A DNA stretch of 63,951 bases, filler included. It is 7 parts of 7 records of this genome, joined end to end, with 100 filler letters (N's around TTAATTAATTAA, not from the genome) between each part and the next. Parts side by side here need not be neighbours in the genome. Positions count along the whole stretch, not along the records: positions 10,044 to 19,104 come from SRR20825006_2298; 6 more parts are not named here. One strand, given 5' to 3'. Position 1 is the stretch's first letter; each line of letters starts with the position of its first letter. Under the pieces are notes generated by a model. That model did no database searches. It saw nothing but the letters and a program-made list of their open reading frames with translations, and had not been told where the DNA came from. Of the stretch, positions 9,223 to 19,329 are shown piece by piece. Made by a program: the position numbers and the translations under genes.

Positions 9223-9942
9223 TTACATTGTTTCACTAGCTTCTTTAAGCTTCTCTGTATTTTCTGTCATTTTAAGTTCTTCCACAATTTTCTGAATATC
9301 GCCATTCATAATATTCGATAAATCGTAAAGGTTTAATCCAATTCTATGATCTGTTACACGCCCCTGCGGATAATTATAAGTTCTAATTTTAGCACTTCTA
9401 TCTCCACTTGAAACCATGCTCTTACGTCTTGCAGAATCCTCCTCTTGCTTTTTAGCCAATTCACGCTCATACAAACGTGAACGAAGTACTTTTATAGCCT
9501 TTTCTAAGTTTTTATGTTGCGATTTTTCATCCTGACAACGCACTTCTATCCCTGTAGGTAAATGCTGTAATTGGATAGCAGAATATGTGGTGTTAACCGA
9601 CTGCCCTCCAGGCCCTGTAGAAGTTGTTCTGATAATTTTTACATCTCCCATATCAAGCTCTACATCAAACTCTTCAGCTTCTGGCAACACCATTACTGTA
9701 GCCGCAGACGTATGCACACGACCTTGGGTTTCTGTTTGAGGTACCCGTTGCACACGGTGTACCCCCGATTCAAATTTTAAAGTTCCGTAGACATTCTCTC
9801 CATTAACCTCAAAAATAATTTCTTTATAGCCTCCAGAAGTTCCTTCATTAAAATCTACCACATTAACTTTCCATCCTCTACTTTCGCAGTATTTGGTGTA
9901 CATTCTATGTAAGTCTCCTGCAAAAATACTAGCTTCATCTCC
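9223..9942 (-). CDS. prfA: Peptide chain release factor 1 (5'-truncated at contig end)
   Basis: [14 protein letters not shown] (PxT motif of RF1), [20 protein letters not shown]. Confidence 0.95.
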
Positions 9943-9943
9943 T

Positions 9944-10043
9944 NNNNNNNNNNNNNNNNNNNNNNNNNNNNNNNNNNNNNNNNNNNNTTAATTAATTAAN
10001 NNNNNNNNNNNNNNNNNNNNNNNNNNNNNNNNNNNNNNNNNNN
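9944..10043. other. Artificial contig linker
   Basis: N-run, TTAATTAATTAA, N-run; 100 nt. Confidence 0.98.
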
Positions 10044-10073
10044 GTGCCGGTTCGATTCCGGCTCCGGGCACCA
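10044..10073 (+). tRNA. 3' end of tRNA-Leu (T-arm, acceptor strand, CCA); left att site
   Basis: GTGCCGGTTCGATTCCGGCTCCGGGCACCA; the first 26 nt are identical to 19079-19104. Confidence 0.85.
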
Positions 10074-10128
10074 TATATATCAACACGTTACAATTTATTT
10101 TTATTTCCTCTGCCACCGCCTCGTCGCC

Positions 10129-10147
10129 ATGTAGACGTTATGTAGAC
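10129..10147 (+). promoter_or_regulatory. Putative integrase arm-type binding sites (left)
   Basis: ATGTAGAC-gtt-ATGTAGAC with 11-nt period; same architecture at 18904-18922. Confidence 0.7.
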
Positions 10148-10285
10148 ACAGGAGCGACTTTCATATCTGGCTGATTATGCGAATACGTCCAAATCTGCTA
10201 CCTTTCATAGCATCGGGTGGAGCACACATATTTTAATCAATTGATTTACAAAAGATAATTGCAATTTATGTGAAGGGAATCCCTA

Positions 10286-10912
10286 GTGTCAGAAATAACC
10301 TCAGAATTTTATCTAACGAACCAAAACACGGATGAAGACGAGAAAGTTGAGATTCATCATGGCCTGTCTGATTTAGATAACCTTTATGCTGATAAAGCAT
10401 GGACACAAGCAAACGCTAATATCTTGGGGGAGATCCTGAAACTGGTTGAAGCTGGTGGCGATATTGAAAGCTTGTTGTCAGAGGTTGATATAGAAGACAA
10501 GCATTGGGAATGGGTTAGAAAGGGATTAGCGCTTAACACAGGAGAATATGAGTGGTTTTATGCAAAAGTTCACGGCTCAGTCGAGGGAATATGTGTAATT
10601 TTTCACCCTCAGCCTAGCCAATTTGATCAAAAAGATATCTTTTACGTGGACTATATAGCGATTGCTCCCTGGAATCGAAAAAATCCCATTTATACCCAGA
10701 AGTTTAGAGGTATAGGCTCGATCCTTATCAAGGAATCTTTAAGGTACTCTGTAGAAAAACTTCAGTACCGACCGGGCTTCAGCTTGCACTCATTGCCTCA
10801 GGCTGTGGGTTATTATGAGAAGATCGGAATGAAAAATTTTGGTGAGGATGAGCAAAAGCAAGGGCTAGTGTACTTCGAAATGAGTGAAGCGAACTCCGAG
10901 ACATTTCTTTAA
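10286..10912 (+). CDS. GNAT family acetyltransferase (putative toxin/effector)
   Basis: YVDYIAIAPWNR, QKFRGIGSILI (motif A), LHSLPQAVGYYEKIGM (motif B); GTG start after GAAGGG. Confidence 0.85.
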   Translation: MSEITSEFYLTNQNTDEDEKVEIHHGLSDLDNLYADKAWTQANANILGEILKLVEAGGDIESLLSEVDIEDKHWEWVRKGLALNTGEYEWFYAKVHGSVEGICVIFHPQPSQFDQKDIFYVDYIAIAPWNRKNPIYTQKFRGIGSILIKESLRYSVEKLQYRPGFSLHSLPQAVGYYEKIGMKNFGEDEQKQGLVYFEMSEANSETFL

Positions 10913-10913
10913 T

Positions 10914-11813
10914 ATGGATGAGTCAATGAAACTGATCAAGGATCTTGCCAATGACGGCGATGATTTCGTTGTCAGTCAGTCCATGATGGACCGCACAAAG
11001 CTCCGTCGGTTATTGCTCAGCTTTGAAGCGATAAAATCAAACATTCCATGGAAAGACATGGAGGCAATGGGCTGGATTGAACATGGGGTAAGATCCTTCT
11101 CCCAAGTACTACCATATCTACTGAGCAATAGCACAAGCGATGGTGCACTTTATCGCAAATCCATCGACGATGAGACTCTTCAAATCAGTTTATGGAAGTC
11201 CAAAGTCCACATGACTTCAACTGCCTTATTGGCAGAGAATCCGAAATTGAGCTTTGAATTAGGTTCTCTCGACACTGAATTCATGTCAAATTTTGTAAAA
11301 ATAAGTCAGAATCCAGCTGCTATTTCAGATTTACCTGATCTACTCTTAGAAAAGGGCATTCTTCTTGTATTTGAAAGAGGGCTTCCGGGAATAAAAACAG
11401 ATGGAATGGTTTTCAAAACGAGTAATGGAATTCCTGTCATTGCGATGACCCTTAGGTATGCTAGATTGGACAATTTCTGGTTCACTTTGTTGCATGAACT
11501 TTCGCATGTCATCAAGCACTATGACTTATTAGATGAAGCGATTGTTGAAGACTTAGATATAGTGTCGACTACTAAAATTGAGAAACAGGCGGACCGCCTT
11601 GCTCAAAATACAATTGTGCCTCGCTATATTTGGGAACGTTGTGAGGCAAAATATACTCACAGTGAAGCTTCAGTTTACAAATTGGCGGAACAAGTTGAAG
11701 TGCATCCGGCCCTAATAGCGGGAATGTTGCGTCGTGAATTGCGGAATTATACGTTGTTTACCAGTTTGGTTAACGCAACAAACACCCGAGAGTTGATCTT
11801 CGGAGAAAACTAA
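10914..11813 (+). CDS. ImmA/IrrE (peptidase M78) Zn-metallopeptidase without N-terminal HTH
   Basis: DNFWFTLLHELSH (HExxH) and downstream EKQAD; IPWKDMEAMGWI. ATG 10914 is 1 nt after the GNAT stop. Confidence 0.85.
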   Translation: MDESMKLIKDLANDGDDFVVSQSMMDRTKLRRLLLSFEAIKSNIPWKDMEAMGWIEHGVRSFSQVLPYLLSNSTSDGALYRKSIDDETLQISLWKSKVHMTSTALLAENPKLSFELGSLDTEFMSNFVKISQNPAAISDLPDLLLEKGILLVFERGLPGIKTDGMVFKTSNGIPVIAMTLRYARLDNFWFTLLHELSHVIKHYDLLDEAIVEDLDIVSTTKIEKQADRLAQNTIVPRYIWERCEAKYTHSEASVYKLAEQVEVHPALIAGMLRRELRNYTLFTSLVNATNTRELIFGEN

Positions 11814-12892
11814 TGGAATATTTTCCTTTCTTGAAAGCGAAGATGAACGAGGTTTCAGGTGTCGCTGAACTTTCCTCGGAAGCGCTACAATCAATCACCC
11901 CCTTCTTCGACATACCTAAGCCAAAAGATGACACTGAGGAAGCAACAGCAAAGGCTATTCAGGTCTCTAAGAAACATCTGACGAAATATTTCCCTGATGA
12001 TAAAGATTATTACCTTGACATATTCGATCTGAACCCACTACTTCGAATTTCAGGTTATCACGTCTATGATTGGACTCTTGGTGAGTTAACCGGTCCAAAC
12101 CTTATACCTGTAGTGGGGCTAGACCGAGACCCAGATCATTTAAAGTCCGTCATCAATTACCTAAAAAATGGAAAAGAAACCAGCAGGAAAGTATGCATAA
12201 GGCTTTTGAGAGCCGATTTCGAAGATTATGAATTGGTTGAGGACGATCTGAAAGATCTCATTTCTCAAATCGAAAAATACGTGGATGACTACGACATTGC
12301 TCTCGATAGCAGGATTGTGTCGAGCGCAGAAGTGAACGTAATATCAAAAGAAATGAAGAGTTTTTTGGACGAAATCTACGCGAAACTTAATCCGCGTCGT
12401 TGCTTCATTGCATCGAGTTCAATCTCGCCGATAACGTCTGAATATGTTCGACCATCCTCAGAAGCGCACCTAAGGAGGTCCGAGAAAGAAATTTGGTCAG
12501 ACCTCTCCAGCATGCTCTCAGGCGCGCAAAGCCGGAAAGTTTTTTATGGAGATTACGGCGTAGTTAGTCCTAATTATTCGGATCCGAATATCTCTCCGGG
12601 ACTATTTAATACCGTGTCCACACCAAAAGCGTTGTACACTTACGATCACGGGTATTTCGCCGTACGCGGAGGTTCGTTTAAAACTCATGGTCGCGAGCAG
12701 TATTATGACTTGGCAGATATTATTGTGTCCAAAAATTTCTTCAGAGGAGCTGCTGCCTCAGCAGGAGATAGCTATATTTCAGAAAGTGCGAAAAGATTAA
12801 CGAAAAAGGGAAGTGCTGGCTCTTGGATTAAAAACACCTTAATCTCTCATATTGAATTCGTACATTATGAAATTCGTTCAGGAGCAATCTGA
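11813..12892 (+). CDS. Beta-family protein (P4 beta / sce7725-like)
   Basis: N-terminal YFPFLKAKMNE..A..ELS....ITPFFDI, C-terminal FYGDYGVVSPNY, SAGDSYI, GSAGSWIK...HI; TAATG-coupled to the peptidase. Confidence 0.8.
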   Translation: MEYFPFLKAKMNEVSGVAELSSEALQSITPFFDIPKPKDDTEEATAKAIQVSKKHLTKYFPDDKDYYLDIFDLNPLLRISGYHVYDWTLGELTGPNLIPVVGLDRDPDHLKSVINYLKNGKETSRKVCIRLLRADFEDYELVEDDLKDLISQIEKYVDDYDIALDSRIVSSAEVNVISKEMKSFLDEIYAKLNPRRCFIASSSISPITSEYVRPSSEAHLRRSEKEIWSDLSSMLSGAQSRKVFYGDYGVVSPNYSDPNISPGLFNTVSTPKALYTYDHGYFAVRGGSFKTHGREQYYDLADIIVSKNFFRGAAASAGDSYISESAKRLTKKGSAGSWIKNTLISHIEFVHYEIRSGAI

Positions 12893-13446
12893 TTATAACG
12901 ATTTGCAAGTGTTCTGCTAATTTCTTTGATTATGAAATCTTTATTATTGGTACTCGCTATTAATTTTGCTAAGTCTTCACGAGTAGCATTTTTTTTAAAT
13001 TTCTTTTCGGTGATTCTTGAGGCAATTTCCTGAAGCTCGGCCTTCCACAGGGCCAAGAGCGCATGATATTTGGAGAAATCTATATTATTAGATGCAGCTC
13101 TTACATAAGCGAATGAAACCTGATCTTCTCGCTTTTTTGCGAGTAATATTCCCCAGTATCTGGGCAATGAAATCAACGCCTTCTCGATGTTTCTTTCTGT
13201 TGTTACAAGGGTAATCTTTGGCGCGACTCTATTGTAATAGACCGCTTGTACTTCCAGCCTGGAAATCTTGTCCAGATCGCCTTTAATTTCATAAAGATGG
13301 AGGGATTTTGAGATCGCGGTTAGATCGGCGATTACATTCCCATTGTGAAACACCTGCTCATGCTTCAAGAGCCCAGTCTTCGGTAGGCGGTTTTTGATGT
13401 GTCGCTCTAAATGACTCCGAATTTGGCGGTCGGATAGCATTTTCAA
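12865..13446 (-). CDS. sce7726 family / P4 cII-like PD-(D/E)XK-fold protein
   Basis: E...NGNVIADL, HLYEIKGDLDKISRLEVQAVYYNRV, PRYWGI, LLALWKAEL; convergent with beta, 28-nt overlap. Confidence 0.8.
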   Translation of the reverse strand: MKMLSDRQIRSHLERHIKNRLPKTGLLKHEQVFHNGNVIADLTAISKSLHLYEIKGDLDKISRLEVQAVYYNRVAPKITLVTTERNIEKALISLPRYWGILLAKKREDQVSFAYVRAASNNIDFSKYHALLALWKAELQEIASRITEKKFKKNATREDLAKLIASTNNKDFIIKEISRTLANRYNQIAPERIS

Positions 13447-13463
13447 TTCCTCGGAAATACGAA

Positions 13464-15140
13464 CTAGTGTACCTCAGTACAGTTATTGACAGAACTCCAA
13501 GGAGGCGCGTTCGCGCCTCTTACTAAAACCTTACACGAGCCGCTGAATTGAAGATCATCTTCAGATGGCTTGGTACGACCGATCGTCCACTCGTAAATCC
13601 TGGTCACCACCCGACCGGCAGAGCCAACTAAGCCTTTCAACTGGTCTGCTAGTTCGTGGTATTTGGTCTCTGTGGTTTTCGGGACCATGAGGGCGCGTAA
13701 CGGTTGGTCCTTTAGCTGGAGGCAAACGCCGCCCATCAGTTCCACGTATCGCTTCCAGTCGCCGTTATCGGCGGCCTGTTCAAGTTGAAGGACGAGTCCT
13801 TTCCGTTCTCCTTCGATATTTCGGAGCCGCCTGAGCTCTCGGTAAACGGTTACACTGGGCGCTCCCATAAACTGAAACTGACGGATGCCCCAGATACTTG
13901 CCCAGGCTCTGATTCGAGCCGCTGACTCGACCGCATCATTCCCGTAGGAGTCCTCGCCAACTTCGAAACCGTCGATGGATTTGGATATGTATTTCGCAAC
14001 ATATCCGGTTGCTCTCCCTTTTTCTGGATCGATTTCCTCAACCACGAAACGATTTTCGAAGGCGCCGCTTTCGTCGCGGTCTTCCTCAAGGGCGTATTTC
14101 CGAAATAGCCGGTTGGCTTCGGGAAGATCCCGCTTTTCAAGGAAGAGCAGCAGATGCCAGTGGGGTGTGCCGTCATGGTGTGGCTCAACAGTGCGGATGC
14201 CGTACCACTTGATGCCTTTGCGTTGAAGGGAGGAGCGGACGCGGGCCCAGACCTGGTTCAGGTAATTCTGCGAATCGAGCGGCGAGGCTCCCTGAAACTT
14301 TCCATTGGCGTGGCCGTTCTGATGGGTCGCGTGGTACTTGGAAGGGCAGGTGATGGTGTAAAAAACGCCAACGTGACCGTGTTCGTTCGCATAGTCCTCG
14401 AGGCCACCGATTCGCATCATGGTCTCATTTCGTCTGTTTCTGGGGTTGCTGACAGACTTCTCTTTCAGGCTGGCGAGGGTTGCGGAATAACCAAACTGAT
14501 TCTCGGCGGTGAGCAGTTCCAATAACTCCTCGTTGCTCGCCTGGGCCGCAAGGTAACGCCTGAAGTTGTATTCGCTGATATAGAGATTCGTGGCTTTGGA
14601 GACCAGTCCCAGCTCGCGGTAAACGCTCTCCGAATTCAGATATGCCTTTCGTCTGAGCTGTCTTCGCCACCAGGCGGGATCGAAAACTCGGGCCAGTCCC
14701 GGAATGACTTTTTCTTTGTCAGAAAGGTCGCCTAAAGAAACAGGAAACTCCATTCCGGTCTTCTCGGTCTCGCGGATCAGAAGGTTAAGGGCTTCTTTCC
14801 CGTTAACAGCAACAGCATGGCCGGTGAACTCGCGCTCAAGCCGCAGGGAGATTTTCTCGGAAAACGACCGGAAAAGATCAAAAGGAGAATCGGCTTTGAG
14901 TCCGCCCAAGTCATCATGCAGGTGCAATCGGTCCAGCAATTCCTCAAGCCACATGTCTGCTTGGTGGTAGGTGGCGCTATCGGCAATGCGGAGGTATCGG
15001 TTGAAGACTCTTTGCTTGAGGTGAGGATGCTTGTTCTCGACGATCCGCAACATCTTTCGGGACCGAATGTCGCCCAGGGTGAAAGGGCGGCCCTCGTTTT
15101 TTAACCAATTAAACGGTCCGACCGGAAGCGTTGCAGTCAT
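13464..15140 (-). CDS. Replication endonuclease, P2 gpA-like HUH rolling-circle initiator
   Basis: FYTITCPSKYH (motif 1), EPHHDGTPHWHLLLF (HUH), GYVAKYISKSIDG (two catalytic Tyr), WGIRQFQF, PWSSVNNCT. Confidence 0.92.
   Translation of the reverse strand: MTATLPVGPFNWLKNEGRPFTLGDIRSRKMLRIVENKHPHLKQRVFNRYLRIADSATYHQADMWLEELLDRLHLHDDLGGLKADSPFDLFRSFSEKISLRLEREFTGHAVAVNGKEALNLLIRETEKTGMEFPVSLGDLSDKEKVIPGLARVFDPAWWRRQLRRKAYLNSESVYRELGLVSKATNLYISEYNFRRYLAAQASNEELLELLTAENQFGYSATLASLKEKSVSNPRNRRNETMMRIGGLEDYANEHGHVGVFYTITCPSKYHATHQNGHANGKFQGASPLDSQNYLNQVWARVRSSLQRKGIKWYGIRTVEPHHDGTPHWHLLLFLEKRDLPEANRLFRKYALEEDRDESGAFENRFVVEEIDPEKGRATGYVAKYISKSIDGFEVGEDSYGNDAVESAARIRAWASIWGIRQFQFMGAPSVTVYRELRRLRNIEGERKGLVLQLEQAADNGDWKRYVELMGGVCLQLKDQPLRALMVPKTTETKYHELADQLKGLVGSAGRVVTRIYEWTIGRTKPSEDDLQFSGSCKVLVRGANAPPWSSVNNCTEVH
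13477..13520 (-). other. Putative double-strand origin (nick site), P2 ori-like
   Basis: Minus strand CCTTGGAGTTCTGTCAATAACTGTAC, preceded by a GAGGCGC/GCGCCTC hairpin; resembles the P2 ori as recalled (GCGCCTCG^GAGTCCTGTCAA), which lies inside the A gene. Confidence 0.7.
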
Positions 15141-15463
15141 GAGTGCTTCCCGGTGACTGTCTGCAGTCGGTCGATTCTATTGGTTAAATGGCAGGGAGAA
15201 TAGGCGGGGCCCTCGTACCTGTACCTTATAGGTTCGTACCCCTTATTTAGCAGGGGGTGCGGCAGGTACGGTGAACCTAATAGGGTGTCCGGGACTCGGG
15301 TTGTACCTGTTAACGAAACGAACCTGAACCTATAAGGTCGAGGCGTATCCGTTAACGGACACAGGGACGGTTCAAAGCCGTTAACGGGAACTGGGTTGGC
15401 GGGTCTGCCAAGTAGTTCGTTAACGGATACCCTGACCGTTAAGGTAACGGTCCGCGTAACCAT
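15137..15463 (-). CDS. Possible translationally coupled ORF over a highly structured palindromic region
   Basis: Start overlaps the alpA stop (TGATG) and its stop overlaps the rep ATG (ATGA); protein unrecognised; region rich in inverted repeats. Confidence 0.35.
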   Translation of the reverse strand: MVTRTVTLTVRVSVNELLGRPANPVPVNGFEPSLCPLTDTPRPYRFRFVSLTGTTRVPDTLLGSPYLPHPLLNKGYEPIRYRYEGPAYSPCHLTNRIDRLQTVTGKHS

Positions 15464-15660
15464 CAGGCGACCTCCGAAGTGGAGTGTCGTATTTGCTGCT
15501 CAATGTATTCCTCAAGGTCGGACAGTCGATAACGAACGGCCCGACTTCCAATCTTGATGAACTGAACGCGTGCTCCGGCCCAGCGGTCGCGTTCAAGGAA
15601 TGCCTTGCTGACGCCGAGAAATTCGGCGGCCTCTGTGGTGGTAAGAAGTGCTTTGGACAT
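15463..15660 (-). CDS. AlpA/excisionase-like HTH DNA-binding protein
   Basis: LLTTTEAAEFLGVSKAFLERDRW...FIKIGSRAVRYRLSDLEEYI; 65 aa; GGAG RBS. Confidence 0.88.
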   Translation of the reverse strand: MSKALLTTTEAAEFLGVSKAFLERDRWAGARVQFIKIGSRAVRYRLSDLEEYIEQQIRHSTSEVA

Positions 15661-15772
15661 TGCGTGTCTCCAACAGAACTGGTTGCTGTGGGAGACACTT
15701 TGACGCTAACCGGGGAGGGTAAATATTCCCGCCTGGCTCAGACGGGGAGTTTCTGGCTCTAGGCGGGTAGTT

Positions 15773-16651
15773 TTAGGTTGATCGGGGCCGGCCACCTTTC
15801 TTGCTCGCCTCTGGCCTGGGGTCTAGATCCTTAACCCAATCGCGCAAGGTGTCTGGTTTCGTGTAATAACGCCCACCGCCGAAACGTCGGATTGCGTCGT
15901 GCTTGCATATTTCGGCAATACTGAGATCCGGAGACTCTTTCCAAAGTTCTTGGGCGATTTCCCGGCATAAAACCCGATGCTTTTGCTTGTCGGCGAGCTT
16001 GGACCAAAATTTGTCGATCTGGTCTTGTTTGACCCGCCCCGGCAACCCATCCTTTTCATCGTTACTGATTTCGTTCGTCAGTTTGTCCTGATGCTCCTGA
16101 CGCTCTACCTGGGTAAACCAGAAAGAGGGAAGTGGTATCTTGAGAATTTCGCACAGCTCGCAAACACTGTTCTTGTTGATATGTACCCGCTCGAGTGTTT
16201 GTCGCTCAAAAATGCGGTTCTTAAAGCATTGCGGGAAATCTTTCGTTGCGGCCGCATGTCGCCTTAACCATCTCTCCGAGAATTCCTGATACCGTTCCCA
16301 GCGCTCATCGTCGGTCAACGGGTTTTCTGGATCCTCATAAGTCGTCGATACATTGACGGTCATGGGTTCTCCAGTTTTCTCATTGATCTCTTCGTGCGTC
16401 GTTTCTTCAGTTATGGCCGATCCGAAATCGACGTAGTGCTCGAAATCGACGAGAGTTCTCTCGTCTTTCAAGACGATTCCATTCTCATTACATACCTGAA
16501 TCTCGTGCCGGTACTGCATTCGTGTAATGGTCCGGAGCATGTCCTGAACAGGCAGGGGTAGAGCGCTCGGATCTGAATTATTCGGGTCCTGATCGTGCCA
16601 CCGATGGGCGACTTCCCAAATGCTCAGGTGGTCAATGTCGGGATGCAGCAT
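15773..16651 (-). CDS. Hypothetical protein with C-terminal HTH-like region (probable regulator)
   Basis: Ends LSIAEICKH...PDTLRDWVKDLDPRPEASKKGGRPR; sits between int and alpA; start taken at MLHPD after AAGGAC. Confidence 0.6.
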   Translation of the reverse strand: MLHPDIDHLSIWEVAHRWHDQDPNNSDPSALPLPVQDMLRTITRMQYRHEIQVCNENGIVLKDERTLVDFEHYVDFGSAITEETTHEEINEKTGEPMTVNVSTTYEDPENPLTDDERWERYQEFSERWLRRHAAATKDFPQCFKNRIFERQTLERVHINKNSVCELCEILKIPLPSFWFTQVERQEHQDKLTNEISNDEKDGLPGRVKQDQIDKFWSKLADKQKHRVLCREIAQELWKESPDLSIAEICKHDAIRRFGGGRYYTKPDTLRDWVKDLDPRPEASKKGGRPRST

Positions 16652-16719
16652 CGAATTGTCCTTAGAGTTCGAAGATGTGAGCAACTTGGCTAGGACCAAA
16701 CTGCAGTTGAAGGATGCGG

Positions 16720-17577
16720 TTACCGGCTTCTGAAATACGTAATGGATGTCGCTCCTTGACCCCGCTCCCGGCGAATATCAAAGAGCCTCGAGGTATGGAG
16801 CAGGTTTGGCCAACTGACGCACCCGTGCGCTTCGGGAGTAAGGTCGGGGTTCTGATTTTTAATAACTTCAACGGCGAGCGATAGGTCAGTCCATCCGTCT
16901 TTGCTAAGCAGGGACTCCGCGCGCTTCAATTCCTCGACGACACTGGCGCTGGGCCAGTCAATATCTTCTCCGGGGATAAAGCCAAACTTGATCCATGCGG
17001 TGAACTGCGGCGAGTGGAGGAAATCCTTCAGTGCGGACATACCTCCTAGCCTTGCTTGGTCCCAACTTTGGAGCCGTTCCATATGGGACTTGAGCATTTT
17101 TCGTACGGTTTCAAGGTGGTCGATAGCCTGCAGACAGGAATCTTGATCGTCCAAAGGAAAGCGCTGAAGGAAATGATGCACAAGCTCATTTCTCGTTTCG
17201 ACCAGGTAGGTCAAATCATCTAGTAATGTCTGATAGTCGTCTCCGCCTGCGACAATGCTAAATTTTGTCTTAAAATGAACTGCATCCGTCGGAAGTAGCG
17301 AATCGTCTATTTCCGATTCCGACTCATTGCCACTCTCGGACGATATATGACTACCGGTAAAGTCACCTATCAACTGACCAAGGGTCTTACTGCTGTAATG
17401 GGATTGTCGCTTATGGAGATTTGTTTGCCAGGTCTCAGGGGCACCTTCCATCTCCAATACTGAAAGAAAACCTTTCATTCCAAGTTCGTATTTTTGAAGG
17501 TTCAGCACACACCGGCCTAAAAGCTCGAAGACTTGCGTTCTGAGCTCTTCAGTTGTTTTGTCGCACTCATCAGACAT
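16720..17577 (-). CDS. OST-HTH/LOTUS domain-containing protein
   Basis: C-terminal DGWTDLSLAVEVIKNQNPDLTPEAHGCVSWPNLLHTSRLFDI (LOTUS-like). N-terminal helical domain with KTLGQL and RNELVH (Rx4H, HEPN-like). Confidence 0.7.
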   Translation of the reverse strand: MSDECDKTTEELRTQVFELLGRCVLNLQKYELGMKGFLSVLEMEGAPETWQTNLHKRQSHYSSKTLGQLIGDFTGSHISSESGNESESEIDDSLLPTDAVHFKTKFSIVAGGDDYQTLLDDLTYLVETRNELVHHFLQRFPLDDQDSCLQAIDHLETVRKMLKSHMERLQSWDQARLGGMSALKDFLHSPQFTAWIKFGFIPGEDIDWPSASVVEELKRAESLLSKDGWTDLSLAVEVIKNQNPDLTPEAHGCVSWPNLLHTSRLFDIRRERGQGATSITYFRSR

Positions 17578-17608
17578 GATGTTTTCTCGCCTTCCGTTGG
17601 TTGTATCT

Positions 17609-18880
17609 CTATCCGTTTGGTCTGAGTTCATCAGGGAGCTGCGACAACGAATGTTGGGCTTGAGCATGATCGTCCAATTTGAACTGAGCTTCAAAAAAGT
17701 CCGTGATTTTTTGCATAGGCAAGCGTAAACGTTCTACATCAAAGATGATGTAACCGTCTGTCACGTCGTTCGGGTCTTTGTGGTTCATCAGGCGCTTGAG
17801 CGCATAGGCCGGAATGTCGAGACGTTCTGCGGCCGTAATGAAGGTGCGTCTCAGATCGTGCAGGGTGAAGGTCACACCGGACAAGGCGCACACCCGCTTG
17901 ATCGCCGTACGCGGCTCGGACAGGTGGCCACGTTCGGCGTCGCTTGGGAACACATAGGGGCTTTCCTGAGCTTTATGACGGCGATCCAACAGAGCTTCGA
18001 TGGCATCACTGAAGGGCAGGCGATGAACCCGCCCGTTCTTGGTGTCCGGGATGGTTAACGTCTTGTCTTTGAAGTCCACCTGATCCCAGGTGAGGGCGGC
18101 GGCCTCCGTGCGTCGAAGGCCGGTCAGCAAAACGAGGTGCAAGTAATCCCGCGTGGTTTGCCTGTTCAGTTGCATGGTCGCATCGTACCAGGCCTTGAGC
18201 TGGTGATCTTTGATGAGGCTTTGCCGGCGCTCGACCTTGTACCAGGCGCGCTGGTGACTCAGGACATTTACAGGATTCGCCACCAGAAAGGGCTTTCCGG
18301 AGGCGTCCTGGTACCGTTGCAGGGCGTGGTTGAACACCGCCCTCAGAATCCGCATCCCGTTATCGGCCCGAGCGGGACTGCGTTGACCGTATTCCGCATG
18401 GCGACTGAGCACCATATCCCGGCTGATGTCCTTGAGGGCTCTGCTCTGCCAGTCCTTGAACATCTCACGCATGGAGCGCTGGTAGTCGTTCAGGGTGTTC
18501 GGTTTGAGGCTTTTTCGGGTGGTCAGGTAGTCGTCAAAGGCGTCTTTGAGGGTAATGCGTTGGGCCCGTTTCTCGCTGACTTCCCGGATCGGATCACCGC
18601 CGCTGGCGACCTTGCCCAGAAACTTCATCGCTTCCTTGCGCGCCTGTTCGACGGTCAGGTTACCATAACGGCCGAGGGTCTTCCGTTTGACACGGCCATC
18701 AATCCGTTTTTCAACAATGAAGGATTTGGCCCCGGCACTCGTCACCCGTAGACCAAACCCCGCGATGGCGGAGTCCCGATAAAAGGCCTGGGTGCCTTTG
18801 CCATCCTTGCCAACGTCGGGCAGGGGAACCTTATCCACGAAACCTTTGGTGATCCTCACTGATGCGCCTCCGCTAGCCAT
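17609..18880 (-). CDS. int: Tyrosine integrase (P4-like, N-terminal arm-binding domain)
   Basis: GFGLRVTSAGAKSF arm domain, LLTGLRRTE, TKNG, HDLRRTF, LMNH, DGY. Confidence 0.93.
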   Translation of the reverse strand: MASGGASVRITKGFVDKVPLPDVGKDGKGTQAFYRDSAIAGFGLRVTSAGAKSFIVEKRIDGRVKRKTLGRYGNLTVEQARKEAMKFLGKVASGGDPIREVSEKRAQRITLKDAFDDYLTTRKSLKPNTLNDYQRSMREMFKDWQSRALKDISRDMVLSRHAEYGQRSPARADNGMRILRAVFNHALQRYQDASGKPFLVANPVNVLSHQRAWYKVERRQSLIKDHQLKAWYDATMQLNRQTTRDYLHLVLLTGLRRTEAAALTWDQVDFKDKTLTIPDTKNGRVHRLPFSDAIEALLDRRHKAQESPYVFPSDAERGHLSEPRTAIKRVCALSGVTFTLHDLRRTFITAAERLDIPAYALKRLMNHKDPNDVTDGYIIFDVERLRLPMQKITDFFEAQFKLDDHAQAQHSLSQLPDELRPNG

Positions 18881-18903
18881 CGTCGACAGTCTCTTGTGTC
18901 CTC

Positions 18904-18922
18904 ATGTAGACACTATGTAGAC
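18904..18922 (+). promoter_or_regulatory. Putative integrase arm-type binding sites (right)
   Basis: ATGTAGAC-act-ATGTAGAC. Confidence 0.7.
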
Positions 18923-19052
18923 AAAATCGGTCAAATTCTAGCGGATTTCTTCAAACAACCGCAAACACTGTTTTCTAGAAAAGCCCTTTAAAGCACTGTT
19001 TTATAGTGCCTATTAAATCGTCTTCCAATTTCTTAAAAGAAGGACGCAAATA

Positions 19053-19104
19053 ACTTAAAATCTCTCGACCTCACGGTCGTGCCGGTTCGATTCCGGCTCC
19101 GGGC
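19053..19104 (+). repeat. Duplicated 3' half of tRNA-Leu(TAA); right att site
   Basis: ACTTAAAATCTCTCGACCTCACGGTCGTGCCGGTTCGATTCCGGCTCCGGGC: anticodon loop TAA, long variable arm, T-arm; upstream sequence is not tRNA-like. Confidence 0.85.
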
Positions 19105-19204
19105 NNNNNNNNNNNNNNNNNNNNNNNNNNNNNNNNNNNNNNNNNNNNTTAATTAATTAANNNNNNNNNNNNNNNNNNNNNNNNNNNNNNNNNNNNNNNN
19201 NNNN
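19105..19204. other. Artificial contig linker
   Basis: N-TTAATTAATTAA-N. Confidence 0.98.
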
Positions 19205-19252: not shown

Positions 19253-19329
19253 TGGTGCACCCGAGAGGATTCGAACCTCTGACCCCCTGATTCGTAGTCA
19301 GGTACTCTATCCAGCTGAGCTACGGGTGC
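19253..19329 (-). tRNA. tRNA-Arg(ACG)
   Basis: GCACCCGTAGCTCAGCTGGATAGAGTACCTGACTACGAATCAGGGGGTCAGAGGTTCGAATCCTCTCGGGTGCACCA; 77 nt with CCA. Confidence 0.95.

Follow-up and report, generated by a model that had tools for sequence, protein, structure and literature searches.

Positions 10044 to 19104 of the 63,951-nucleotide (nt) stretch of DNA analyzed here, referred to as the window, hold a compact integrative element. Between two attachment (att) repeats, it carries four cargo genes, a gene for an HUH-type replication initiator (Rep) with a predicted origin of replication (ori), a gene for an AlpA-like protein, two genes for conserved core proteins, and a terminal gene for a tyrosine integrase (Int). 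The original prediction, made from the letters of the window, had described it as a minimal capsid-less element without packaging, structural, or conjugation genes, and that absence holds for all ten open reading frames (ORFs), none of which matched such a family in Pfam, PHROGs, NCBIfam, or PADLOC.

The rep gene (13464 to 15140, minus strand) encodes a 558-amino-acid (aa) HUH endonuclease of the gpA family. It matched Phage_GPA (E value, 3.1e-89; 299.6 bits against a cutoff of 31.4), phrog_91 ("nicking at origin of replication"; 3.3e-168), and PF23343 REP_ORF2-G2P (5.4e-08). Residues 142 to 555 are 43% identical to gpA of the P2-like phage PSP3 and 35% identical to gpA of P2, and the N-terminal 140 residues are not common with either protein. 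The HUH and Y-x3-Y residues (H327, H329, Y380, and Y384) were invariant in an alignment of 26 Reps. In the P2 A protein, the two tyrosines are non-equivalent in role, and the protein acts in cis. A comparison of the window Rep with the sequences of solved structures gave no match at an E value of ≤0.01.

A rolling-circle ori is predicted at 13479 to 13517 on the same strand; it occupies the final codons of rep, exactly on the boundary to the cargo. The P2 nick site, annotated inside gene A (AF063097.1), reads GCGCCTC-GGAGTCCTGTCAATAACTGT and is preceded by a short palindrome; its counterpart in the window is GCGCCTCCTTGGAGTTCTGTCAATAACTGT at 13479 to 13508 on the rep strand, preceded by the palindrome GGCGCG-AA-CGCGCC (13504 to 13517). 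Allowing up to four mismatches, we found the 20-nt ori core in 91 of 97 sequences scanned (i.e., the window and 96 loci, four of them unrelated pieces of G001, the nearest genome compared with the window), which equals 91 of the 93 Rep-bearing sequences, and in none of 40 shuffled loci. The two exceptions among the Rep-bearing sequences were L018, with five mismatches, and the 2.7-kb fragment L041, with no match. In 61 sequences the rep ORF encloses the motif, and in 31 the motif overlaps the stop codon or comes after it; in many islands (see below), the TAA it contains is the rep stop codon. Because the motif is kept while the reading frame changes, it is a DNA site and not a protein constraint, and we read it as a probable rolling-circle origin at which Rep is predicted to nick. 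The P2 ori nick sequence with its hairpin at the 3' end of rep is a new observation of this study. The HUH and two-tyrosine motifs, together with the P2-type ori sequence, bear out the earlier assignment of a P2 gpA-type initiator. Across the P2-like, inovirus, corticovirus, and island Reps, the 20- to 25-nt ori sequence (13479 to 13498 in the window; L001 to L096) is almost invariant, and in front of it there is always a GC-rich palindrome, whose sequence varies.

An identical 26-nt direct repeat stands at both contig ends (10044 to 10069 and 19079 to 19104). The left att (10044 to 10073, plus strand) consists of this core followed by ACCA and corresponds to the T-arm, acceptor 3' strand, and CCA of tRNA-Leu(TAA), the tRNA body being expected to the left, i.e., outside the contig. 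The right att (19053 to 19104, plus strand) is the element's own 3' half of tRNA-Leu(TAA), from the anticodon loop to the acceptor stem, and contains the other core copy. The same 26-mer also occurs inside the tRNA-Leu(taa) genes that ARAGORN called at the flanks of the two closest relatives, L001 and L002. The tyrosine integrase (17609 to 18880, minus strand; 423 aa) is of the long, arm-binding P4 type and is encoded on the same strand as rep (Phage_integrase, 2.4e-21; Arm-DNA-bind_3, 6.6e-14; a SAM-like domain; phrog_1, 1.7e-60); it is 85% identical in L001 and L002. Paired repeats of one family (D9) lie approximately 55 nt inside the left core (ATGTAGAC, 10123 to 10148, plus strand) and approximately 155 nt inside the right core (ATGTAGACA, 18898 to 18923, plus strand), and the same repeat pairs stand near both att copies of L002. 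They fit arm-type sites for an arm-binding integrase and are candidates for that role.

The integrated state must be judged against the make-up of the window. Its seven contigs, with G+C contents from approximately 31% to 60%, are separated by 100-base spacers (N44-TTAATTAATTAA-N44) in which the 12-nt all-frame stop linker TTAATTAATTAA, found six times, has 44 N on each side (9944 to 10043, 19105 to 19204, and at approximately 32804, 42729, 47939, and 55758). The element's coordinates are exactly one whole contig of 9,061 bp. The contig to its left is 100% identical to the low-GC genome G001, in which neither the element nor the 60%-GC contig to its right could be traced; this right-hand contig is not from Marinobacter. 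The assembly of the window is thus mixed, with at least three organisms, so that the neighbors are uninformative about the element's host or insertion site. Since the element is one contig and its flanks are not genomic neighbors, integration in "this genome" is not observed here. The claim of att sites at tRNA-Leu(TAA) accordingly stands for the identical 26-nt ends, and the tRNA-Leu gene itself is absent from the window according to ARAGORN, which called no tRNA within 10044 to 19104. An Rfam scan of the 9-kb contig gave no match at an E value of ≤1. The only tRNA called in the window, tRNA-Arg(ACG) at 19253 to 19329 (minus strand), stands at the start of the next, 60%-GC contig and is unrelated to the tRNA-Leu att.

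Upstream of rep, a 65-aa protein of the HTH_17/excisionase family (15463 to 15660, minus strand) matched HTH_17 (9.1e-11), the NCBIfam model TIGR01764 "excise" (3.6e-07; 30.5 bits against a cutoff of 28.8), and phrog_66. These matches uphold its earlier designation as alpA in an AlpA-like sense, and the Pfam family Phage_AlpA gave no match. Homologs 59 to 78% identical to it stand just upstream of rep in 17 of the 81 loci examined (see below). The interval between this gene and rep (15137 to 15463) is a probable control region. It contains three CCGTTAACGG-type repeats (D1), and two inverted repeats (I12 and I24), a repeat count gave nine matches against 1.45 expected, and L001 and L002 have four or five GTTAAC-centered repeats at the same place. 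The 108-aa ORF that spans it has no homolog in L001 or L002 and is probably noncoding because it is filled with GTTAAC repeats; the region more likely serves control.

The two remaining core genes were listed in the original prediction as an HTH protein and a LOTUS protein. The cargo, HUH Rep, and int of that list are backed by family matches and the att sites by the direct repeat; these two names are not. The first protein (15773 to 16699, minus strand; 308 aa) had no family match in Pfam, PHROGs, NCBIfam, or PADLOC, and comparison of its family with the sequences of solved structures gave chance-level matches only (E value, ≥0.24). An AlphaFold model built from a six-sequence alignment was poor (pLDDT, 60.5; pTM, 0.41). 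Homologs occupy the same position in five betaproteobacterial islands. For the second protein (16720 to 17694, minus strand), the OST-HTH match reached 22.9 bits, below the Pfam cutoff of 23.8; it is 36% identical to a 287-aa ORF of L002. The likely true starts of the two genes are M17 at 16651 and the ATG at 17577, giving proteins of 292 and 286 aa, respectively, in agreement with the lengths of their homologs.

The cargo lies between the left att and the ori. It comprises a GNAT acetyltransferase (10286 to 10912, plus strand; 208 aa; Acetyltransf_10, 3.1e-07; no PADLOC match), an M78/IrrE-type metallopeptidase like component B of PD-Lambda-2 (10884 to 11813, plus strand; PD-Lambda-2_B, 7.7e-59; Peptidase_M78, 3e-08), a Beta protein that resembles both P4 beta and component C of PD-Lambda-2 (11813 to 12892, plus strand; Beta_protein, 1.1e-49; PD-Lambda-2_C, 4.4e-47), and a protein of the sce7726 family (12865 to 13446, minus strand; NF033832, 6.5e-36; PADLOC cll, 2.7e-15). 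The whole segment (10286 to 13446) resembles PD-Lambda-2/gop-beta-cII; PD-Lambda-2 has a HigB-like toxin where the window has the GNAT (PMC9519451, as far as its consulted part goes). A 10.8-kb contig of a Neptunomonas metagenome-assembled genome (MAG) holds the same four genes (L010, 6363 to 9400; GNAT, M78, Beta, and sce7726 proteins 38, 43, 31, and 36% identical to those of the window, respectively), and there they stand behind a Rep that is only 40% identical to the window Rep. Because the four occur together in L010, they may form one system, a PD-Lambda-2 variant in which the GNAT replaces the HigB-like toxin.

The element appears to be one copy of a family widespread in marine and freshwater Gamma- and Betaproteobacteria. 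Among the candidates scored in a protein search, there were 2,748 Rep homologs, many of them on 6- to 11-kb contigs from marine samples. When each species is represented by a single genome, relatives of Rep are encoded at no fewer than 583 loci; we examined the best 80 and L001 (i.e., 81 loci). Fifteen of the 81 are islands in which an integrase 47 to 86% identical and, immediately upstream of rep, an AlpA-like gene 59 to 78% identical to those of the window lie on the rep strand; in about ten others, the corresponding position is occupied by a more distant integrase. P2-like prophages account for 22 loci (PSP3-like portal, terminase, capsid, sheath, or baseplate genes in tblastn searches) and PM2-like corticoviral prophages for 10 (capsid protein and/or P9 ATPase in tblastn searches with two corticovirus sets); none of either kind is an island. 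Matches of the corticovirus sets in L002 and L047 fall on HerA cargo, and approximately 15 loci were left unclassified.

A tRNA gene lies 3 to 7 kb downstream of rep, on the opposite strand, in 25 loci. In 16 of these, an exact repeat of 24 to 67 nt of the tRNA 3' part, extending from the anticodon loop to the tRNA end, recurs beyond the integrase and bounds elements of 6,988 to 11,752 bp; the target tRNAs are those for Leu, Ala, Arg, Pro, Lys, Met, and Thr. Two of the other loci have 18- to 21-nt repeats with another layout, and seven, some on cut contigs, have no repeat. In Pfam searches, each of the 16 bounded islands encodes an integrase and a Rep with one to three ORFs between them, and most have an HTH_17 match or an AlpA homolog upstream of rep. 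Their common layout runs from int through these ORFs, the AlpA-like gene, and rep with its ori to the cargo and the tRNA. None of their 139 ORFs, delimited by a simple longest-ORF rule and not by a gene caller, matched a capsid, portal, terminase, tail, Zot, secretin, relaxase, or type IV secretion system (T4SS) family in Pfam; the only near misses were weak P-loop matches inside HerA cargo proteins. Sixteen relatives thus have the same core, and homologs with capsid, zot, or conjugation genes, which the original prediction had named as the sign of a decayed prophage, were not among them. Its view of the element as capsid-less, and not as such a remnant, is strengthened accordingly.

Anti-phage defense functions are frequent in the cargo of these islands. 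PADLOC models (E value, ≤1e-5) matched the cargo of 11 of the 16, as per-protein matches and not as system calls: type II restriction-modification with SIR2-HerA, SIR2-HerA alone (SIR2-HerA thus occurring twice), CBASS with HORMA/TRIP13, CBASS with E1-E2/JAB and patatin (the two CBASS sets being of types II and III), TIR, a kinase, Nsn/AriA-like ATPases, Ppl-like proteins, PD-Lambda-2_B in two islands, and PDC-M64.

Copies of the element in other sequencing runs showed that its cargo is exchanged. The sampled words of the element were complete in four runs, present at a fraction of 0.98 in two more that may be the source, and approximately half present in twelve metagenome runs from six studies. 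We examined X3, X7, X15, and X16, all as assembled contigs; metagenome runs X4 to X6 and X8 to X14, with a word share of approximately 0.5, do not enter the evidence. The 9,061-nt contig recurs unchanged in X15 and X16, down to its ends, which are thereby marked as branch points of the assembly graph at the tRNA identity; in further contigs of both runs, a tRNA 5' half continues into a 3' half that departs at two positions from the copy in the element. In the algal metagenome X3, a 17,187-nt contig contains 13476 to 19104 with 34 differences (99.4% identity), followed by 3.1 kb of unlike DNA on the cargo side and by 8.4 kb more beyond the integrase-side att; it is an integrated copy with other cargo. 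In the seawater run X7, the core forms a 5,604-nt contig (13479 to 19082) with the same 34 differences, and contigs of 3,162 and 3,853 nt match the window only at the ori motif and att. Identity to the X3 and X7 contigs is thus bounded by the ori (13476 to 13479) and by att, and the similarity of L001 and L002 to the window likewise stops right after the ori motif. The segment from ori to att behaves as an exchangeable cassette. The exchange may proceed by homologous recombination at the two conserved ends or by Rep-mediated strand transfer; in a bolder reading, Rep, or recombination at ori and att, may move defense cassettes among islands, P2-like phages, and corticoviruses. We also considered whether the presence of the same element in X15 to X18 under four organism labels reflects horizontal spread, and rejected this: X15 and X16 share an identical 2,968-nt companion contig, so that one associated bacterium present in several cultures is the simpler reading.

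The relatives of Rep among viruses are of three kinds. The original prediction had assigned gpA-type Reps to P2-like phages and some inoviruses, and both were recovered in the phage collection (Peduoviridae and inoviruses); the list was incomplete in that PM2-like corticoviruses use such Reps too. Inoviruses with this Rep/ori type include Dolos, fs2, Vibrio PE001, and the source of a pre-CTX RstA-like protein that is 37.8% identical to residues 149 to 491 of the window Rep; corticoviruses with it include Cr39582 (P12) and Vibrio PE002. In a tree built from 91 Reps by maximum likelihood (LG+G4, quick search, with SH-aLRT support), 29 of 31 P2-like Reps, mostly enterobacterial, form one clade (support, 99), the inovirus Reps form their own clade apart from the island Reps (100), and the window Rep groups with those of L001 and L002 (100). 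Islands and corticoviral prophages are mixed, e.g., L039 with L067 (99) and L038 with L029 (97). Constraining the 27 island Reps to be monophyletic with respect to the 12 corticoviral Reps costs 158 log-likelihood units in an approximately unbiased (AU) test (p-AU, 0.0007), a test weakened by the naming of the groups after the tree was seen. Evidently, islands and corticoviral prophages have exchanged Rep/ori modules on more than one occasion.

Several individual loci illustrate these neighborhoods. L048, from a Marinobacter MAG, is a PM2-like corticoviral prophage (9935 to 14701) with a P9 ATPase, a capsid protein, and a gpA-type Rep 35 to 39% identical to that of the window. L053 and L067 are PM2-like corticoviral prophages that adjoin a tmRNA gene, with the tmRNA on the far side; in the unclassified loci L020 and L034, a tmRNA lies just upstream of rep, and L021, cut upstream, was grouped with them by a Rep nearly identical to that of L034. 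In Methylobacillus methanolivorans (L047, 1 to 6400), the island's outer att, at tRNA-Met, is adjoined by an integrative inovirus that is complete: it encodes coat proteins, an integrase, a Zot-like ATPase, and a replication protein of phrog_453.

Compared with established classes, the element falls outside the P4-like, PICI, and PICMI satellites by its replication and hijacking genes and outside the P2-like, corticoviral, and filamentous prophages by its lack of virion genes. It resembles P4-like satellites in its long arm-binding integrase, AlpA-type regulator (without a Phage_AlpA match), size of approximately 10 kb, and beta/cII-type cargo, and the P4 integration site is likewise a tRNA-Leu. 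It differs in that none of the ten ORFs encodes an alpha primase-helicase, the replication gene being a Phage_GPA match, and in that Psu, Sid, and Delta had no match at E values of ≤0.01 (Pfam) or ≤0.001 (PHROGs); replication would be of the helper type (P2 A) and not P4's own. Neither the primase-replicase nor the small-terminase or capsid genes of PICI/cfPICI elements were found among the window ORFs. With the PICMI elements of Vibrionaceae, whose core is int, alpA, and a primase (PMC10803314, in its consulted part), the element has in common a small marine island, int and alpA-type genes, one replication gene, defense cargo, and, as far as that part goes, the lack of capsid-remodeling and packaging genes. 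PICMI elements carry a primase, which agrees with the earlier statement on the replication of established satellites, sit next to fis, have a virulent-phage helper, and have been shown experimentally to be packaged as concatemers (same source and extent), whereas the window element has an HUH Rep in place of the primase, has the tRNA-Leu(TAA) 3' end as its att, and is known from sequence alone.

Similar lines can be drawn to the viruses that use this Rep. Relative to the P2 early region (int-C-cox-B-A-hotspot), the Rep core is 35 to 43% identical, the ori nick sequence and preceding hairpin match, and P2, too, has a defense hotspot downstream of its replication gene (PMC9519451 and PMC12629846, in the parts consulted). 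In P2, however, A is approximately 760 aa long with another N terminus, the ori lies approximately 400 nt before the stop codon, the integrase is on the opposite strand, and there are approximately 25 kb of virion genes; no portal, terminase, capsid, sheath, or baseplate gene was found in the window with Pfam or PHROGs. PM2-like corticoviral prophages have the same Rep/ori family, interleave with the islands in the tree, occur in the same hosts (including the Marinobacter MAG of L048), and are of similar size (10 to 13.5 kb); their integrase is of another type and orientation, and no window ORF matched capsid proteins of the double jelly-roll type or the P9 ATPase in PHROGs. For inoviruses, neither a pI/Zot ATPase nor coat proteins were found in the window (Pfam and PHROGs), and among the islands, a Zot-like gene was seen in L047 alone, beyond its att. 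The Vibrio filamentous phage satellites RS1 and TLC are capsid-less and integrated and carry a rolling-circle initiator of the helper-phage type, and on this side the pre-CTX RstA-like protein matches the window Rep; RS1 and TLC use the host XerCD at dif instead of an integrase of their own at a tRNA and have no defense cargo slot.

The closest likeness is to two groups of elements described in 2025. Pseudomonas tmRNA islands encode IntY, AlpA, an "inovirus Gp2-like protein," and defense cargo, and they include I55, an island that a jumbo phage transduces (PNAS 2025, PMC12595487); a preprint (PMC12458937) describes tRNA-integrated defense elements of Escherichia coli with an integrase, an AlpA-like excisionase, and an HUH initiator, which it proposes as minimal satellites (each source being drawn on in part). 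Like the Pseudomonas islands I23, I44, and I55 and the E. coli "uncharacterized integrated MGEs" (mobile genetic elements), the window element combines a terminal tyrosine integrase, an AlpA-like gene adjacent to an initiator gene of the rolling-circle type, direct repeats that copy a tRNA or tmRNA 3' end, defense cargo, and no transfer genes. Both groups were proposed as satellites in the consulted parts of these reports, I55 having been shown to be one. The element fits this loose class of tRNA/tmRNA islands. The call of an under-described type made at the outset is therefore fair for the family, and the kind as such had already been described in these sources, as far as their consulted parts go. 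The published elements measure 23 to 55 kb or carry large payloads, have RadC, YqaJ, or moron modules and repeats of 14 to 20 nt, and name the initiator "inovirus Gp2-like" or "HUH," a comparison made by descriptions only and not by protein sequences, in which the match of the window Rep to PF23343 REP_ORF2-G2P is the one link at the protein level; the present family has elements of 7 to 12 kb, repeats of 24 to 67 nt, and a full gpA-type Rep, and its cargo is delimited by a P2-type ori. Three distinctions within the class are thus its minimal size, the gpA-type Rep with the P2-type ori at the cargo border, and the corticovirus-linked Rep modules. Our literature search, which left most subscription journals uncovered, found no paper on this gpA-Rep island family as such, and the supplements of PMC12458937 and PMC12595487 may name the same Rep family.

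We interpret the element as a small integrative, self-replicating defense island that depends on a helper for transfer, with a probability of approximately 60%. The P4-type integrase, acting with the paired arm-type sites, would insert the circular form into the 3' end of tRNA-Leu(TAA), and because the element brings its own tRNA 3' half, the tRNA gene would stay whole. Upon induction, the AlpA-like protein would promote excision, switch on rep through the GTTAAC-repeat region, or do both. Rep would then nick the P2-type ori in its own last codons and start rolling-circle replication of the excised circle. The ori-att segment would serve as the exchangeable anti-phage defense slot, filled here with the GNAT, M78, Beta, and sce7726 genes. 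Because particle and conjugation genes are absent across the family, spread between cells would need a helper, most likely a phage whose particles the element enters as a satellite-like hitchhiker. The jumbo-phage transduction of I55 (PMC12595487, in its consulted part) is a precedent for phage-mediated transfer of an island with an integrase, AlpA, and a Gp2-like protein.

Some observations weigh against this interpretation. No excised circle, replication, or packaging was seen in the material, which consists of assembled contigs in which an att identity of ≥30 nt is unresolvable at k=31. Copy number estimated from contig depths was unreliable because the depths of the short junction contigs contradict one another (element, 64.5; tRNA nodes, 48 to 139; flank-like contig, 11.7), and the 2,968-nt flank-like contig used in that comparison may derive from another strain. 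The host of this copy is itself only likely, from its relatives, to be Marinobacter-like. The two island-bearing Marinobacter genomes (L001 and L002) each hold a single gpA-type Rep, the island's own, so that no resident prophage in them has the Rep/ori type of the island. The best 80 relatives on viral contigs in IMG/VR are at most 45% identical to the window Rep and mostly P2-like, a negative that is silent on encapsidation because the islands are without the hallmarks used to pick viral contigs. Finally, the text and seven supplements of the paper on VEIMEs make no mention of gpA or a replication endonuclease.

A more specific form of helper dependence would make the islands satellites of PM2-like corticoviruses, tailless, membrane-containing viruses for which we know of no satellite. 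As 7- to 12-kb double-stranded DNA circles that use the Rep/ori of the helper, they would be replicated and packaged like viral genomes. The island size matches the helper genome size of 10 to 13.5 kb, the Reps interleave (SH-aLRT, 97 to 99 for two pairs) with island monophyly rejected, and the prophages occur in the same genera. Against this stand the lack of a second gpA-type Rep in the two Marinobacter genomes and the post hoc grouping in the AU test, and we regard this version as unlikely.

About as doubtful is an integrative mobilizable element in which the HUH Rep doubles as a relaxase and the ori as an origin of transfer (oriT), with a conjugative element supplying the mating pore. HUH and Rep_trans initiators of some integrative elements do serve both replication and transfer (PMC5714925), and many islands hitch on conjugative elements (preprint 10.64898/2026.01.13.699239), according to the consulted parts of these sources. 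Relaxase, coupling protein, and T4SS matches were nonetheless absent from the window and the 139 island ORFs (the near misses being the weak P-loop matches in HerA cargo), and the characterized users that we found for this Rep/ori type are all viruses; from sequence alone, oriT mimicry or use of Rep as a relaxase remains conceivable.

We consider it improbable that the islands are satellites of filamentous phages whose rolling-circle single strands are coated and extruded by a helper inovirus, as with RS1 and TLC beside CTX-phi. Inoviruses such as Dolos, fs2, and Vibrio PE001 do use this Rep/ori type, as does the source of the pre-CTX RstA-like protein, and a complete inovirus adjoins the outer att of island L047. 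That tandem arrangement occurs in only 1 of the 16 islands, though, and the Rep of the inovirus in question belongs to a different family, phrog_453; the separation of inovirus from island Reps in the tree (100% SH-aLRT) points the same way, and we identified no packaging signal.

Similarly improbable is a free circular, plasmid-like replicon in the sample, or helper-free spread by transformation, vesicles, or generalized transduction. A circle would give a contig with repeated ends such as the one seen here, the element forms its own 9,061-nt contig in three assemblies, its Rep and ori are complete, and VEIME-like concatemers have been reported in vesicle fractions (PMC9618062, in its consulted part). 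On the other hand, the contig break coincides exactly with the tRNA identity, the point at which the presence of a tRNA-Leu gene would force a de Bruijn graph to branch; the same runs contain contigs bearing the tRNA 5' half; and the relatives and the X3 contig are integrated.

That the element is what decay left of a prophage (P2-like, corticoviral, or filamentous) after the loss of structural genes is very improbable: Rep and ori are common to all three kinds of virus, a variable defense slot downstream of the replication gene exists in P2 as well (PMC9519451 and PMC12629846, as consulted in part), and truncated or split Reps occur (L004 and the 293- and 231-aa cluster members described below), but all 16 att-bounded relatives, which span many genera and tRNA sites, have the same compact core without a virion gene, the integrase of P2-like and corticoviral prophages is shorter and on the opposite strand whereas that of the islands is long, arm-binding, and on the rep strand, and the Rep, ori, and both att copies of the window element are intact.

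If the reading as a helper-dependent defense island is correct, then an integrase, an AlpA-like protein, a gpA-type Rep, and an ori suffice for a mobile carrier of anti-phage defense, and such carriers are common in marine and freshwater Proteobacteria. Finders keyed to capsid, terminase, or primase genes would miss these islands. Because the ori is near-invariant and stands at the exact edge of the cargo, the sequence between the ori motif and the tRNA repeat is candidate defense cargo, which is useful for mining. Through the family, capsid-less islands are also connected with the replication modules found in corticoviruses and in P2-like and filamentous phages, and this link makes the question of the helper directly testable in cultivable Marinobacter, relatives being present in Marinobacter sp. 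C7 and M. suaedae. For annotation, this copy of the element should not be credited to the low-GC organism that supplied the neighboring contig.

Further observations concern Rep variants and the cargo of individual islands. Besides L004, in which Rep is truncated or split, the protein clusters of P0001 and P0002 contain members of 293 and 231 aa on approximately 20 contigs each, the longest of 59.6 kb. These members look like a split Rep, which suggests a decayed copy fixed in some lineage. The islands L015 (11362 to 15856) and L049 (11379 to 14705), from different bacterial classes, have a common cargo of a small ORF, a PD-Lambda-2_B-like M78 peptidase, an aGPT-Pplase3/amino acid:DNA transferase, and a thymidylate-synthase-like protein, which looks like a thymidine hypermodification set. 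In the betaproteobacterial islands L047, L058, L066, and L070, toxin-antitoxin-like pairs (ParE or RelE with a helix-turn-helix protein, and BrnA) lie inside the conserved core, just downstream of int and before the conserved middle gene. The cargo of L008 (11711 to 13791) comprises a PP2C phosphatase and a Ser/Thr kinase (PD-T4-6/mad6 models) and recalls the kinase-phosphatase modules beside Phage_GPA and AlpA genes described in the consulted part of PMC11341870.

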